Origin: Candidatus Bipolaricaulota bacterium
GTDB lineage: Bacteria > Bipolaricaulota > Bipolaricaulia > Bipolaricaulales > Bipolaricaulaceae
NCBI GenBank assembly: GCA_014361015.1
Contig: JACIWJ010000001.1
Location: forward strand, 7,765 to 71,764
Direction: 5' to 3'
Length of the DNA stretch: 64,000 bases
This document shows positions 47,566-51,814 of the stretch, piece after piece. The notes below the pieces were generated by a model that did not search any database, had not been told where the DNA came from, and saw nothing but the letters and a program-made list of their open reading frames with translations. How positions within the stretch are numbered: the first letter of the stretch is position 1; each line of letters starts with the position of its first letter. A program made the position numbers and the translations under genes.

Positions 47566-50500
47566 GTGATCGACCAGGTGCGCAAGCGAGACGGGAGCGT
47601 TGTTCCATTCGAGAAGGAGAAGATCGCGGCTGCCATCCAGCGCGCCCTGGCCGAGGTGGGGCGCGACGATGCCCCGCTGGCGGCCGCGCTCGCGTCTCAG
47701 GTGGAACAGGCCCTCGCGCTCCGGTTCGGCCCCCTGTTCGGTCCCCCCCATGTGGAGGAGATCCAGGACGCGGTGGAGGAGGCCCTCATGGCCGCCGGCC
47801 TTCCCGATGCGGCGCGGGCGTACATCGTCTACCGCCACCAGCACAAGCAGCTTCGCGAGATCAAGGAGCTCGTCGATCCTGGGCTCGTGGGGAGCTACCT
47901 CAACGGCCAGGACTGGCGGGTGCGCGAGAACTCGAACATGGCGTTCTCCCTCCAAGGGCTGAACGTGTTCCTCACGGAGAAGATCATCGGCCAGTACTGG
48001 CTCACGAAGGTGTACCCAGACCCGATCCGCCGGGCGCACACCGAGGGTGACTTCCACATCCACGACCTCGGCACCCTGGGCCCGTACACCTACTACGGCA
48101 AGGAAGTGGTGGTCGCACGCCATGCGGGGCAACTGAAGGTCTGTTCGTTCGAACAGCTGTACGCGGGGTCAGCGGTCGAGGAGGTCCTCCTCTGCGAGGC
48201 TGACGGCGCGTACGCCAAGTTCCCGAACGACCTCTACGTCCTCGACAAGGACGGCTGGACACGCGTCACACGGCTCGTGCGGAAGGCCAAGCACCGCCCA
48301 ATGCGGTTCATCAAGAACCGGGGCGGGCGGAGCGTGATCGTGACCGACAACCACCCGATGATCGTTCCCCACGGGGAGAAGGAGGCCGTGGCCCTCAACG
48401 AGGGCGACCGCACGTTCACGGTGAGCTTGACGCGCCTGCTTGCCCACGAGAACTTGTTCTCCCAGAGCGAGCTCGACCTGGCGGAGGCGATCCGCGAGCG
48501 GGGGGCCGGTGGCCGGCCGGTGTACCTGGACGGAGTGCCCCTCTCGGAAGCGAGCGATGGCGACCTCCTCCACACCGCGAGCTCCTCGTTCCCCCGCCAC
48601 GTGCGGTTGACGGAAGGGTTCGGCTACTTCGTGGGCCTGACGTTGGCCGAGGGGTTCCTGTCCTATGACCGCAGGGGCAGCCGGGTCATCTCCATCACCC
48701 AGCGGGAGCGGGAGCGGTTGGTACGCGCCAACCGAGGCCTCCTGGACAATCGGACATCGGGTTGCCTGCGGTTGCGGGACGACGGCCGCTGGGAGCTGCG
48801 GGTGGCCAATCCGTTCCTGCGTTTTCTGTTCGAGCGGGTGTTCGAGATCCGGCCCGGCTCCCGTCACAAAACCCTCCCCGTCGGAATCCTGGGCTACAGC
48901 CGCAGCTTCGTCCAGGGCCTCATCGCTGGGTTGATCGATGGGGACGGGACGGTGGAGAGCTGCGGTACCCGACTGTCGCTGCGGGTTGCGGCGCGGAGCC
49001 TCCTCGAGCAGCTGGCGGTGGTGATGGAGCTCTTGGGCTTCATCCCCCGCGATCGGGCCCTGGAGGGCCAGGGGAGCCGCCGCTGGGCCCTCGGGCGGGC
49101 GATCGTTCAGAACCACCCGCTGTACGGGCTTTCGTTCAGCAAGACCCCGCTGGAGCTCCCTGGGGAGAAGTACCAGGAGGCGGCGGTGGCCACCAAGGCG
49201 TGGCACGACGCGGACCGCGACGAGTGGCACCGGGTGATCAACAACGACCCCGTGGACATCCCGGACGAGATCATCTACGACGTGACCACCGAGTCGGGCA
49301 CGCTGGTGGTGAACGGGATGTGGAACCACAACTGCGTGGGGTGGGACCTGGCGGACCTCCTGCGGCAGGGGTTCCGCGGGGCGCGGGGGAAGGTCGAATC
49401 GAGGCCACCGAAGCACTTCCGGGTGGCGCTCATGCAGGCGGTGAACTTCCTCTACACCCTCCAGGGCGAGGCCGCCGGCGCGCAGGCGTTCTCGGGCGTG
49501 GATACCCTCCTCGCCCCGTTCATCGCCGCCGACGGGCTGTCCTACCGCGAGGTCAAGCAGGCCCTCCAGGAGTTCGTCTACAACCTGAACGTACCCACCC
49601 GGGTGGGGTTCCAGACGCCGTTCACGAACATCACCCTCGACCTCCGGCCGCCGGCGCACATGGCTGCGCTGCCGGCCTTGGTGGGAGGGCAGCCGTTCGG
49701 CACGTACGGCGAGTTCACGAGGGAGATGGGTCTGTTCAACCGCGCTCTCGCCGAGGTGCTGACGGAGGGCGACGCCCGGGGGAGGGTGTTCACCTTCCCC
49801 ATCCCGACCTACAACGTGACGGGCGACTTCCCGTGGGACGATCCGAACCTCGTCCCGCTGTGGGAGATGACGGCCAAGTACGGGATCCCCTACTTCGCGA
49901 ACTTCCTCTCCTCGGACATGAAGCCGGAGGACGCCCGCAGCATGTGCTGCCGGCTCAGGCTCGACGTGCGCGAGCTCCGGCGCCGCGGGGGAGGGCTGTT
50001 TGGATCGAACCCCCTCACGGGTTCGATCGGCGTGGTGACCCTGAACCTGCCGCGGCTCGCGTTCCTCTCCAAGGGCGAGGACGAGTTCTTCGAGCGCCTG
50101 CAGGCGCTCATGCAGACCGCGGGACGATCGCTCATCATCAAGCGCAAGCTCCTGGAACGCCTCACCGAGCAGGGGCTGTACCCGTACTCCCAGTTCTACC
50201 TGTCCTCGGTCCGGGAGCAGCGAGGCGAGTACTGGGGGAACCACTTCTCCACGATCGGCGTGATCGGGCTGAACGAGGCCGCGCTGAACCTCGTCGGGGT
50301 CAACCTCGCCCACGAGGAGGGGATCCGGTTCGCGCGCCGGACCCTCCAGTTCATGCGCGAGACCCTCGTTCGGTTTCAGGAGGCGACCGGCCACCTGTGG
50401 AACCTCGAGGCGACCCCCGCCGAGGGGACGGCCTATCGGTTGGCGATGCTCGACCGGGCGCGCCATCCGGGGATCCGGGTTGCCAACGAGCACGCGGTGA

Positions 50501-50856
50501 GGGAGAAGGGGGCCGCGCCCTACTACACGAACTCGTCCCAGCTTCCGGTGGACTTCACCGACGACCTGTTTCGTGCCCTCAAGCTCCAGGAGCCACTCCA
50601 GACCCTGTACACCGGGGGGACCGTGTTCCACGCTTGGCTCGGGGAACGGCTTCCAGCGCCCGAAGCCGTGAAGTCCCTCGTGGCGAAGATCTTCGCGAAC
50701 TTCCGCATCCCCTATCTCACCCTCACCCCGACGTTCTCCGTATGTCCCCGGCACGGGTACCTTCCCGGGGAGAACCGCTATTGCCCCCAGTGCGACGAGG
50801 AGATCATCGTGCGCCATCAGAAGGCCCAAGGAGGCGTTTGTGTCCACGTACCGTGA
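47566..50856 (+). CDS. nrdD: anaerobic ribonucleoside-triphosphate reductase (class III) large fragment, with ATP-cone and an intein, lacking the glycyl-radical domain
   Basis: ATP-cone VRKRDGSVVPFEKEKI. GDFHIHDLGTLGPY ... CVGWDLADLL is interrupted by the intein. C-terminal Zn-ribbon remnant CPRHGY...CPQC. The frame ends 21 codons after CPQC without an RVxGY motif. GTG start after AAGGAGA. Confidence 0.9.
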   Translation: MIDQVRKRDGSVVPFEKEKIAAAIQRALAEVGRDDAPLAAALASQVEQALALRFGPLFGPPHVEEIQDAVEEALMAAGLPDAARAYIVYRHQHKQLREIKELVDPGLVGSYLNGQDWRVRENSNMAFSLQGLNVFLTEKIIGQYWLTKVYPDPIRRAHTEGDFHIHDLGTLGPYTYYGKEVVVARHAGQLKVCSFEQLYAGSAVEEVLLCEADGAYAKFPNDLYVLDKDGWTRVTRLVRKAKHRPMRFIKNRGGRSVIVTDNHPMIVPHGEKEAVALNEGDRTFTVSLTRLLAHENLFSQSELDLAEAIRERGAGGRPVYLDGVPLSEASDGDLLHTASSSFPRHVRLTEGFGYFVGLTLAEGFLSYDRRGSRVISITQRERERLVRANRGLLDNRTSGCLRLRDDGRWELRVANPFLRFLFERVFEIRPGSRHKTLPVGILGYSRSFVQGLIAGLIDGDGTVESCGTRLSLRVAARSLLEQLAVVMELLGFIPRDRALEGQGSRRWALGRAIVQNHPLYGLSFSKTPLELPGEKYQEAAVATKAWHDADRDEWHRVINNDPVDIPDEIIYDVTTESGTLVVNGMWNHNCVGWDLADLLRQGFRGARGKVESRPPKHFRVALMQAVNFLYTLQGEAAGAQAFSGVDTLLAPFIAADGLSYREVKQALQEFVYNLNVPTRVGFQTPFTNITLDLRPPAHMAALPALVGGQPFGTYGEFTREMGLFNRALAEVLTEGDARGRVFTFPIPTYNVTGDFPWDDPNLVPLWEMTAKYGIPYFANFLSSDMKPEDARSMCCRLRLDVRELRRRGGGLFGSNPLTGSIGVVTLNLPRLAFLSKGEDEFFERLQALMQTAGRSLIIKRKLLERLTEQGLYPYSQFYLSSVREQRGEYWGNHFSTIGVIGLNEAALNLVGVNLAHEEGIRFARRTLQFMRETLVRFQEATGHLWNLEATPAEGTAYRLAMLDRARHPGIRVANEHAVREKGAAPYYTNSSQLPVDFTDDLFRALKLQEPLQTLYTGGTVFHAWLGERLPAPEAVKSLVAKIFANFRIPYLTLTPTFSVCPRHGYLPGENRYCPQCDEEIIVRHQKAQGGVCVHVP
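48088..49332 (+). mobile_element. intein (415 aa) with LAGLIDADG homing endonuclease inside nrdD
   Basis: Block A-like TYYGKEVVV, block B VIVTDNHP, LAGLIDADG motifs (FVGLTLAEGF, LIAGLIDGDGTV), block F IIYDVTTESGTLVVNG, block G MWNHN followed by +1 Cys. Removing it joins ...LGPY to CVGWDL... Confidence 0.85.
50828..50842 (+). promoter_or_regulatory. Shine-Dalgarno AAGGAGG plus GTG start of the glycyl-radical ORF, inside the 3-prime end of nrdD
   Basis: AAGGAGG (50828-50834), 5-nt spacer CGTTT, GTG at 50840. The nrdD-frame TGA is at 50854-50856. Confidence 0.55.
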
Positions 50857-51046
50857 GGATGAACAGGGGAACTTGGTCCTCGAGGATGGAACGGTCATCC
50901 CGGAGACGGAGCGGACGAGAGCTGAGGTCTACTCTCGCGTCGTGGGCTACCTGCGCCCGGTGGAGCAGTGGAACGCGGGGAAGCAGGCCGAGTTCGTGGA
51001 TCGGAAGGTGTTCCGCCCCCCTCTCGGGGACGAGCGACCCGGCTAG
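50840..51046 (+). CDS. class III RNR glycyl-radical domain encoded as a separate 68-aa +1-frame ORF
   Basis: Contains EVYSRVVGYLRPVEQWNAGKQAEFVDRK, the canonical NrdD C-terminal glycyl radical motif (Gly codon at 50945-50947). Overlaps the nrdD end by 17 nt. Confidence 0.8.
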   Translation: MSTYREDEQGNLVLEDGTVIPETERTRAEVYSRVVGYLRPVEQWNAGKQAEFVDRKVFRPPLGDERPG

Positions 51047-51049
51047 CGG

Positions 51050-51814
51050 ATGGAGGTCGCCCATCTTCAGCCCCTCTCCCTCCTCGACTACCCGAGGCAG
51101 GTGGCGGCGGTGGTGTGGACGGTGGGGTGCAACCTCCGCTGTCCGTTCTGCTACAACGCTGAGCTCGTCCTGCCCGAGCTTGCTGTGGGTCTTCCGCGGC
51201 TCCCGGCGGACGGGCTGCTTGCTCGGCTGCGGGAGCGGGTGGGGTTCCTCGACGCGGTCGTCGTTACCGGGGGAGAACCCACCCTCAACGTCGATCTCCC
51301 TGGGTTCCTGCGGGAGCTGAAAGCGCTGGGATTCCTCGTCAAGCTCGACACGAACGGGACCCGTCCCGACGTCCTCCGGTCTCTGCTCGATGACGGGCTC
51401 GTGGACTACGTGGCCCTCGATGTCAAGGCGCCGTTCGCGCGGTACCCCGAGTTCACCGGCCTCCCGCCTGCGCTCTCTGTCGCGTCGGGGGTGGTTCCCG
51501 ACGGCCGTTCGGCGTCGGAGGGCATGTCCGATCTCGTGGTGCGGATTCGGGAGTCGATGGCCGTGGTCCGTGACCGCGCCCCCGACTACGAGTTCCGGAC
51601 CACGGTTGCCCCTGGGATCGCTCGGGAGGACCTGGTGGCGATCGCCGGCGAGATCCGTGGCGCCCGGCGCTACGCGCTCCAGCCGTTCTTCGTCCCCGCG
51701 GGGAAGCGGCTGCTAGACGAGACGTGGCGGGGGCGGCCCGCCCTACCGGCCGGCGAGCTGCGGAGGATCGTCCCCGAGCTTCAGAAGTTTGTGCTCACCG
51801 AACTCCGGGGTTAG
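51050..51814 (+). CDS. nrdG: anaerobic ribonucleotide reductase activating protein (radical SAM)
   Basis: LLDYPRQVAAVVWTVGCNLRCPFCYN (CxxxCxxC) and VVVTGGEPTL. Confidence 0.9.
   Translation: MEVAHLQPLSLLDYPRQVAAVVWTVGCNLRCPFCYNAELVLPELAVGLPRLPADGLLARLRERVGFLDAVVVTGGEPTLNVDLPGFLRELKALGFLVKLDTNGTRPDVLRSLLDDGLVDYVALDVKAPFARYPEFTGLPPALSVASGVVPDGRSASEGMSDLVVRIRESMAVVRDRAPDYEFRTTVAPGIAREDLVAIAGEIRGARRYALQPFFVPAGKRLLDETWRGRPALPAGELRRIVPELQKFVLTELRG

Follow-up and report, generated by a model that had tools for sequence, protein, structure and literature searches.

The 64,000-nucleotide (nt) stretch of contig JACIWJ010000001.1 of a Candidatus Bipolaricaulota bacterium of oil fields and hot springs analysed here (the window) contains an nrdD gene for a class III ribonucleotide reductase, which is interrupted by an intein with threonine as its first residue (Thr1). 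With a probability of about 0.7, this element belongs to class 1, can splice and move, and contains a nested LAGLIDADG homing endonuclease; it lies immediately before the active-site cysteine of NrdD and would use Thr1 as the N-terminal nucleophile. As far as can be told, it represents a large and previously undescribed natural family of Thr1 inteins with a covarying signature. The gene, the flanking host segments (exteins) and the intein, with lengths in amino acids (aa), are arranged in the window as follows.

47566..50856, + strand: large open reading frame (ORF) of nrdD, class III ribonucleotide reductase precursor with the intein included, 1096 aa (ORF list, Pfam, NCBIfam)
47566..48087, + strand: N-extein, 174 aa, ending in HIHDLGTLGPY with Tyr at position -1; uninterrupted in intein-less relatives
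48088..49332, + strand: intein of 415 aa, in which a LAGLIDADG homing-endonuclease domain (about residues 126-380) interrupts the HINT splicing domain (homologue alignment, AlphaFold2, Foldseek)
49333..50856, + strand: C-extein, 507 aa plus stop codon, ending in CPQCDEEIIVRHQKAQGGVCVHVP, without a glycyl-radical motif
49333..49335, + strand: Cys+1 (TGC), with which the C-extein begins, a conserved active-site Cys of NrdD

The nrdD ORF matches the Pfam model NRDD with 562 bits, has an ATP-cone at its N-terminus and matches LAGLIDADG_3 above the cutoff, while its match to the Pfam model Intein_splicing lies below the Pfam threshold. NCBIfam PRK08270 scores 934 bits against a cutoff of 548, which identifies the NrdD catalytic domain. 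The insert comprises residues 175-589, opens with TYYGKEVV, closes with GMWNHN and is followed by CVGWDL. Its deletion leaves a product of 681 aa that agrees in length and local sequence with intein-less relatives. Among the 120 best relatives obtained from a search of 5.8 billion proteins, 27 are intein-less; they read continuously through HIHDLGTLGPY/CVGWDL (the slash marking the junction), and most of them are exactly 681 aa long. When the spliced product was compared by BLAST with the 120 homologues, the insert was found between residues 174 and 175 in all 92 intein-bearing proteins, each of which shows the pattern GPY/TY[YF]G…HN/C at this point. All 90 intein-bearing homologues that could be extracted by motif have Tyr at position -1, and 87 of these 90 inserts end in HN followed by Cys, the other three being clipped by the pattern match.

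The element is an in-frame insert whose exact removal restores the host sequence, as expected of an intein. An earlier note on this DNA, made from the sequence alone, had placed a 415-aa intein at 48088-49332 and expected its excision to restore the conserved NrdD region; its boundaries are exact in the homologue alignment, and the joined GPY/CVGW is that of the intein-less relatives. The same alignment, which the earlier note had proposed as a check, leaves the N-terminal junction on Thr and not on Cys or Ser. A junction shifted by one residue was rejected, as it would yield GPN-CVGW instead of the conserved GPY-CVGW. A boundary moved onto a Cys or Ser was likewise rejected, since the intein-less alleles and the HN/C terminus permit only Tyr174/Thr175.

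Catalytic residues are typical insertion sites of inteins. Cys+1 is kept in all homologues, whether intein-bearing or intein-less, and its alignment partners are Cys79 of T4 NrdD, as had been supposed from its position, and Cys125 of Thermotoga maritima NrdD. Work on T4 NrdD by Logan and by Andersson and colleagues reportedly found Cys79 to be an essential active-site residue; given this alignment, the intein is therefore located at a catalytic residue. Because the insert lies directly before the active-site Cys, its splicing would be obligatory for NrdD activity, and could act as a control point for the reductase.

In each of the 92 close homologues that carry the intein, the insert begins with Thr. 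Scanning one genome per species revealed 39 loci from about 15 phyla of both Bacteria and Archaea. The bacterial loci belong to Bipolaricaulota, Chloroflexota, Desulfobacterales, Thermodesulfobacteriota, Peptococcaceae, Melioribacteraceae, Planctomycetia, Saccharibacteria, Omnitrophota, Latescibacterota, Hydrothermota and Clostridia, and the archaeal ones to Thermoplasmatota, Micrarchaeota and ANME-1. In the 37 loci that cover the junction the first intein codon is ACC (15), ACT (11), ACA (9) or ACG (2); since all four ACN codons are used, it is the residue and not the codon that is conserved. At 48088-48090, where the earlier note had asked for the reads to be inspected, no variant of ACC was found in contigs of four independent public runs, which derive from oil-production, oil-field and hot-spring metagenomes and include one metatranscriptome. 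A sequencing error or a recent Ser/Cys-to-Thr mutation was rejected on the basis of the four runs and the ACN diversity of the 37 loci. Metatranscriptome contigs span the junction with the insert present, so the locus is transcribed; no joint skipping 48088-49332 was seen in these contigs, which cannot prove the absence of removal at the RNA level.

The residues and motifs of the intein on which the following analysis is based are listed below.

48088..48090, + strand: Thr1 codon ACC, first residue of block A (TYYGKEVV)
48283..48285, + strand: Lys66 (AAG) at the 'NX-motif' position, preceded by Arg65; aligned with His61 of the Neq Pol intein
48331..48357, + strand: block B (SVIVTDNHP), with Thr86 (B:7) at 48343-48345 and His89 (B:10) at 48352-48354
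48622..48654, + strand: LAGLIDADG motif 1 (GYFVGLTLAEG), catalytic acid Glu188
48916..48948, + strand: LAGLIDADG motif 2 (GLIAGLIDGDG), catalytic acid Asp286
49270..49317, + strand: block F (IIYDVTTESGTLVVNG), with Ile396 (F:2) at 49273-49275 and Asp398 (F:4) at 49279-49281
49318..49332, + strand: block G (MWNHN), with His414 (G:6) and the terminal Asn415

All the motifs named earlier, namely TDNH of block B, block F, HN of block G followed by Cys+1, and two LAGLIDADG motifs, are present. In an alignment of 87 inteins of the close family, whose overall identity is only about 50%, the invariant residues are T1, G4 and E6 in block A, S82, I84, T86, H89 and P90 in block B, I396, D398, T400 and T401 in block F, and H414 and N415 (87/87) in block G. 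T86 and H89 are also invariant in all 76 members of a wider set of Thr1, Ser1 and Cys1 inteins, as is D398 at F:4, and the HN terminus occurs in 75 of the 76, the remaining one having KN. H414, N415 and the following C590 being invariant, block G has the HN that is followed by Cys, Ser or Thr at +1.

Both LAGLIDADG motifs are likewise conserved among the 87 inteins. In the first, G183 is invariant and position 188 is E in 84 inteins and D in 3; in the second, G281 does not vary and the acid at position 286 is D in 84 inteins, with E in its place in 2 and Ala in 1. The domain is predicted to be a double-motif LAGLIDADG endonuclease with two helices, acidic ends and a fold similar to that of I-DmoI and PI-SceI. 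The AlphaFold2 model of the intein with 10-residue flanks has a mean confidence (pLDDT) of 89.8 and a predicted template modelling score (pTM) of 0.90, and is poor only in the extein tails. Its best Foldseek matches in the PDB are the TliVMA, PhoVMA, PI-TkoII, PI-PfuI and PI-SceI inteins (E down to 9e-19), endonuclease-bearing archaeal inteins being the best structural matches; the free LAGLIDADG enzymes I-DmoI and I-Tsp061I also match. The model thus points to the HINT fold. Direct comparison of the intein sequence with solved structures gave marginal matches only. With a profile of the N-terminal splicing domain the closest solved structures are the Pab and Pho PolII inteins (E 4e-9 to 3e-8), matched from residue 1 through block B, and the profile position of Thr1 is aligned with Cys1 of both. 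The homologues, the 37 loci and this profile alignment all bear out the assignment of residue 1 as Thr (ACC), made earlier from block A.

Pairwise comparison of the window with two relatives gives a ratio of non-synonymous to synonymous substitutions (dN/dS) of 0.11-0.13 over the intein as a whole. Within it the endonuclease shows 0.11-0.14 and the C-terminal splicing region 0.03-0.05, and the exteins show 0.05-0.12 with the same two relatives. Purifying selection on the intein is as strong as on the extein.

A full HMMER scan with the intein alone against 1.84 billion cluster representatives gave 288 matches at E ≤ 0.001, of which 25 had E ≤ 1e-30. The residue aligned with position 1 was mapped in the best 150 of the 288 matches. 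In this set, inteins at the same NrdD site (…Y/x……HN/C) but from more distant subfamilies comprise 37 clusters with Thr1, 29 with Ser1 and 12 with Cys1, and the matches in other host proteins begin with Cys or Ser. Cys at +1 is found in all same-site inteins, and the HN end wherever the C-terminal junction could be located, with the exception of one KN. Among about 170 inteins at the NrdD site a non-nucleophile was not found at residue 1, which is never Ala, Gly or Pro. Parsimony on a neighbour-joining tree requires at least four state changes at residue 1.

Two positions of the intein differ according to residue 1. All 40 inteins with Thr1 have Ile at F:2 (position 396), and all 36 with Ser1 or Cys1 have Val there. 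Column 396 is unique in that its mutual information with the Thr/non-Thr state reaches the full entropy of this state, 0.998 bits; the next best column attains 0.725. The same Ile/Val pattern is seen in isolated Thr1 branches and in the sister pair of Thr1 and Ser1 inteins P0155 and P0154. At the NX position (66), which follows Arg or Lys at 65, Lys is found in all 87 Thr1 inteins of the close family and in 39 of the 40 in the wider set, and His in 19 of 25 Ser1 and 7 of 11 Cys1 relatives. Its alignment partner in the Neq Pol intein, His61, is the 'NX-motif' histidine that Hoffmann et al. 2023 (PMC10189870) regard as a signature of Ser1 inteins and that lies within hydrogen-bond distance of the Ser1 hydroxyl and the F:4 Asp. 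One Ser1 subgroup (SYFGDE, SYMGSE, SYKGTE) has Lys instead of His at NX, as in Thr1 inteins.

The course of splicing and homing, including the parts played by Thr1, Lys66 and Ile396, is inferred to be as follows. The Thr1 hydroxyl would attack the carbonyl of Tyr174 in an N-O acyl shift, helped by Thr86 and His89 of block B and Asp398 of block F, with Lys66 at the NX position probably acting as the base and Ile396 (F:2) probably packing against the Thr methyl group and fixing its rotamer. In the next step the N-extein would pass to the Cys+1 thiol, so that the oxyester becomes a branched thioester. Cyclisation of Asn415, aided by His414, would free the intein, and an S-N shift would form the Tyr-Cys peptide bond of the 681-aa NrdD large subunit. 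The endonuclease of the freed intein could then cut intein-less nrdD alleles and so spread the element.

Thr1 is favoured as the nucleophile because all residues that assist class 1 splicing are invariant, because Thr, Ser and Cys, and nothing else, interchange at position 1 of one site, and because residue 1 has co-adapted neighbours in the active site. Thr would also be chemically competent, because the S1T mutant of Tli Pol-2 splices, as cited in PMC2807308; that Thr, however, stands in an engineered mutant of a Ser1 intein and not in a natural co-adapted family. Thr1 carries a hydroxyl and in this respect falls within the chemical definition of class 1, although it lies outside the observed set of Cys and Ser (PMC2807308, PMC4031507, PMC7664689). 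The definition of class 1 by Perler and co-workers also admits Thr at residue 1 (PMC5222942).

The view of the earlier note that Thr1 is essentially unreported in natural inteins agrees with the literature searched. Tori et al. 2010 (PMC2807308) describe Thr1 as unobserved in any identified intein, Mills et al. 2014 (PMC4031507) give Cys1 or Ser1 as the nucleophiles of the first step, and Wood et al. 2023 describe no residue but Cys or Ser at position 1. Reviews published between 2014 and 2023 are in line with this, the first-step nucleophiles that they list as observed being Cys and Ser only. No report of a natural Thr1 intein was found in open-access papers and preprints, where Thr1 is either said to be unobserved or covered only by general definitions, and a report elsewhere is possible. 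Proteins of the Thr1 family are present in public databases, where they are named only as ribonucleotide reductases.

Among known systems, the class 1 Ser1 oxyester inteins (PI-TkoII/Tko Pol-2, Psp-GBD Pol, Mja TFIIB, Neq Pol, PolB16 OarG) share with the NrdD intein the HINT fold, a hydroxyl at residue 1, TxxH in block B, Asp at F:4 and the terminal His-Asn. They also have a basic NX residue after Arg or Lys and an acidic residue on the preceding strand, which correspond here to K66, R65 and D53. Unlike them, the NrdD intein has Thr1 and not Ser, Lys and not His at NX, Ile and not Val at F:2, and Cys+1 and not Ser or Thr. GOS-TerL resembles it in combining a hydroxyl at residue 1 with Cys+1, so that an oxyester is passed to a thiol, and in having no NX histidine; however, GOS-TerL is a split mini-intein of a phage terminase with Ser1, whereas the NrdD intein is contiguous, 415 aa long, equipped with an endonuclease and begins with Thr1. 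The combination of Ser1 with Cys+1 has been described as known only from the GOS-TerL split intein (PMC10189870). Ser1/Cys+1 inteins at the NrdD site form 29 clusters, found among the representative clusters P0128-P0261. The Pab and Pho PolII (PolC) inteins differ in being Cys1 mini-inteins of DNA polymerase II, with Ala at NX and without an endonuclease.

In the intein literature Cys and Ser, but not Thr, stand at position 1, even though Thr is common at +1 and the engineered S1T mutant splices. A large natural, co-adapted Thr1 family spread across many phyla makes this puzzle of the missing Thr1 directly testable. Homologous inteins that begin with Thr, Ser or Cys at a single insertion site are open to comparison, as are exchanges of Ile/Val at F:2 and of Lys/His at NX. 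The pairing of a hydroxyl at residue 1 with Cys+1, of which one case, a split intein, had been reported, is shown by these inteins to be common in nature. Inteins from thermophiles that begin with Thr or Ser would give protein engineering an N-terminal step independent of thiols.

Several points weigh against Thr1 as the nucleophile of a functional intein. Thr is a more hindered nucleophile than Ser. All sequences of the family are derived from metagenomes and their splicing is predicted, the contacts of Thr1 with Lys66 and Ile396 come from alignment to published structures, and the tree used for residue 1 is a rough neighbour-joining one. The lack of Ser within Thr1 clades could reflect a structural and not a nucleophilic role of Thr1. 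Cys+1 is always present, and its direct attack on the peptide bond, as in class 2 inteins, would be compatible with the sequence.

The last of these points leads to the strongest alternative, a minority one to which we give a real but low chance: Cys+1 would attack the Tyr174-Thr1 bond directly and form the branched intermediate in one step, as in Mja KlbA, and Thr1 would only shape the site. Such a route would use the invariant and stronger nucleophile and avoid the uphill transfer from oxyester to thioester. It could also rely on B:7 Thr, B:10 His and F:4 Asp, the residues it needs (PMC4031507), which the NrdD intein shares, together with Cys+1, with the class 2 KlbA orthologues. An idle side chain, however, would not be expected to be Thr, Ser or Cys in all of the approximately 170 same-site inteins, nor would residue 1 be expected to covary with F:2 and with NX, which adjoins the residue-1 side chain in solved Ser1 inteins. 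Moreover, all class 2 inteins described so far are orthologous to that of KlbA and carry Ala1 together with Ser at G:6 (PMC4031507), whereas the NrdD intein has a different host, Thr1, and His414 at G:6.

A relic intein, with NrdD inactive or tolerant of the insertion, is very unlikely. Thr1 is non-canonical, and the nrdD ORF, having no in-frame glycyl-radical motif, gives the impression of a broken gene at first sight. However, splicing residues that are invariant across many phyla, together with a purifying dN/dS of about 0.12, are not those of a degenerate element; the insert breaks the strand bearing the active-site Cys, the glycyl-radical segment is conserved as an ORF of its own, preceded by a Shine-Dalgarno sequence, starting with GTG and followed by nrdG, and the locus is transcribed. 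The earlier note had considered a dead intein, ACC being one base away from AGC (Ser); neither a dead intein nor a recent ACC/AGC change agrees with the invariance of Thr1 (92 proteins and 37 clusters), the use of four codons and purifying selection. Of the three options left by that note, the N-O acyl shift by Thr1 is thus favoured, the class 2-like route is kept as the minority rival, and the dead intein is strongly disfavoured.

Equally improbable is another internal nucleophile, class 3-like or with a new branch point, that would leave Thr1 a bystander. Class 3 inteins (MP-Be DnaB, Mch/Msm DnaB-1, Bvi IcmO), which have the HINT fold and, like the NrdD intein, a residue other than Cys or Ser at position 1, show that residue 1 can be replaced by internal nucleophiles; inteins of this kind (Pro1, F:4 Cys, G:5 Thr) also occur at another site of related NrdD proteins. 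Yet the first residues of class 3 inteins are non-nucleophilic (Pro, Ala and others), and their WCT triplet (Trp B:12, Cys F:4, Thr G:5) is replaced here by M91, D398 and N413, in agreement with its absence as noted earlier, with F:4 being an invariant Asp. The intein contains no conserved Cys, Cys19 and Cys36 of the window not being conserved. Finally, the chance of an artefact, whether wrong bases at 48088-48090 from sequencing or assembly or an incorrectly placed boundary, is negligible: no point in its favour was found, the bases are identical in four independent runs, the 92 proteins and the 37 loci are in accord, and intein-less alleles, that of locus L040 among them, determine the boundary.

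If Thr1 is the nucleophile, its surroundings invite comparison with the Thr1-Lys33-Asp17 site of the 20S proteasome beta-subunit. The likeness suggests a base role for Lys66 next to Thr1 and a methyl-holding role for Ile396. It is an analogy only, consisting of a Thr hydroxyl nucleophile near Lys and Asp; the proteasome has the Ntn hydrolase fold and performs hydrolysis, not splicing, and the intein triad is a putative one. In the proteasome the Thr methyl group is hydrophobically anchored, and Ser is tolerated but less efficient (PMC4792962). A more speculative proposal, which we consider possible but rather doubtful, is that Thr1, NX Lys, F:4 Asp and an Ile 'clamp' at F:2 form the catalytic signature of a mechanistically distinct class 1 subclass, a proteasome-like Thr-Lys-Asp arrangement within the HINT fold that drives oxyester-to-thioester transfer onto the catalytic NrdD Cys. 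In that case, activation of the reductase would depend on the reactive free thiol of this Cys.

Two genes that complete the reductase locus lie immediately downstream of the intein-bearing ORF.

50840..51046, + strand: 68-aa ORF with the NrdD glycyl-radical segment (EVYSRVVGYLRPVEQWNAGKQ), in the +1 frame, with a GTG start (profile match)
51050..51814, + strand: nrdG activase (radical SAM, NrdG2 type), TIGR02495 187 bits against a cutoff of 131

The RVxGY glycyl-radical motif is not found on the large NrdD ORF, which stops earlier, so that it is not part of the same polypeptide. The 68-aa ORF is matched to the closing 30 or so positions of both NrdD models, 548-579 of 581 in TIGR02487 and 532-562 of 562 in Pfam NRDD, and overlaps the end of nrdD by 17 nt. 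A perfect Shine-Dalgarno sequence, AAGGAGG, is located at 50828-50834, 5 nt before the GTG at 50840, and is encoded by a conserved 'KGG' near the end of the large subunit. The same split arrangement and start are kept in loci L001 and L040, in the latter of which the small ORF was called as a gene, and split NrdD loci also include L022, L027, L028 and L038. Split NrdD is seen in half (60) of the 120 closest homologues, intein-bearing and intein-less alike, from Bipolaricaulota, Chloroflexia and Thermoplasmatota, with the small ORF in all three relative frames. No insertion or deletion was found at the split in the four public runs. A literature search aimed at this arrangement turned up no account of an NrdD glycyl-radical peptide that stands alone. 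As judged from these comparisons, the missing motif is no defect of the large ORF, the segment being carried by a separate gene. The adjacent gene encodes an NrdG activase, and the host operon, consisting of nrdD, the glycyl-radical ORF and nrdG, is intact and transcribed.

Translational bypass of the kind known from T4 gene 60, or a +1 frameshift, was set aside in view of the AAGGAGG followed after 5 nt by the GTG start; both are also disfavoured by other lineages, in which the small ORF occurs in all three frames with its own ATG. A possible take-off codon, the CCG at 50851-53 directly before the nrdD stop codon (CCG TGA, 50851-56), has a counterpart across a gap of 49 nt, the CCG at 50900-02 in the frame of the small ORF; this correspondence is judged coincidental in view of the small ORF's strong ribosome-binding site and start.

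An intein-less allele was found at the DNA level in L040, which has the same gene neighbourhood as the window and in which the insertion point reads GGCCCGTAC joined directly to TGCGTGGGG. Identity of this locus to the window is 86% over the exteins, and 56 of 60 nt before and 60 of 60 nt after the insertion point are identical. This could represent a co-conversion tract left by homing, at which the intein-less alleles of close relatives also hint indirectly, or strong constraint on the active site. In run X1, an oil-production metagenome, one assembler unitig stops exactly at 48087, the final base ahead of the intein, and word depth is about 271-332 in the flanks (48058-48087, 49333-49435) and 220 inside the intein. 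These data suggest, as an unconfirmed reading, that an intein-less allele coexists with the intein-bearing one in the X1 sample. A tblastn search of the intein against 50,697 phage records gave no match.

The NrdD subfamily is an intein hotspot, and some of the homologues (P0003-P0120) carry three or four inteins and reach 1900 aa. In the numbering of the spliced protein, other inserts are located at about 219, at 268 (Cys1, GN/T end) and at 269 (Ser1, HN/T end, a different intein), and further ones at 328 (Ser1), 378/379 (Cys1), 379/380, 404, 540 (Ser1), 574 (Cys1) and 603 (Cys1). Among the insert sites of the subfamily, only the intein at 174/175 begins with Thr. Inteins with Pro1 (PLAGDE... 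or PLHPDT...) are present in P0077, P0098, P0104, P0107 and P0108 (331 aa) and in P0065 and P0068 (165-168 aa), between the two Cys of ...RSMC/CRLRL.... Cys+1 in an intein of class 3 is known only for Bvi IcmO (PMC5222942). The Pro1 inteins have Cys at F:4 (…AYCFEV…, …VFCFVV…), Thr at G:5 (…LTHN) and Cys+1, without Trp at B:12, and by these motifs look like class 3-like inteins with Cys+1.

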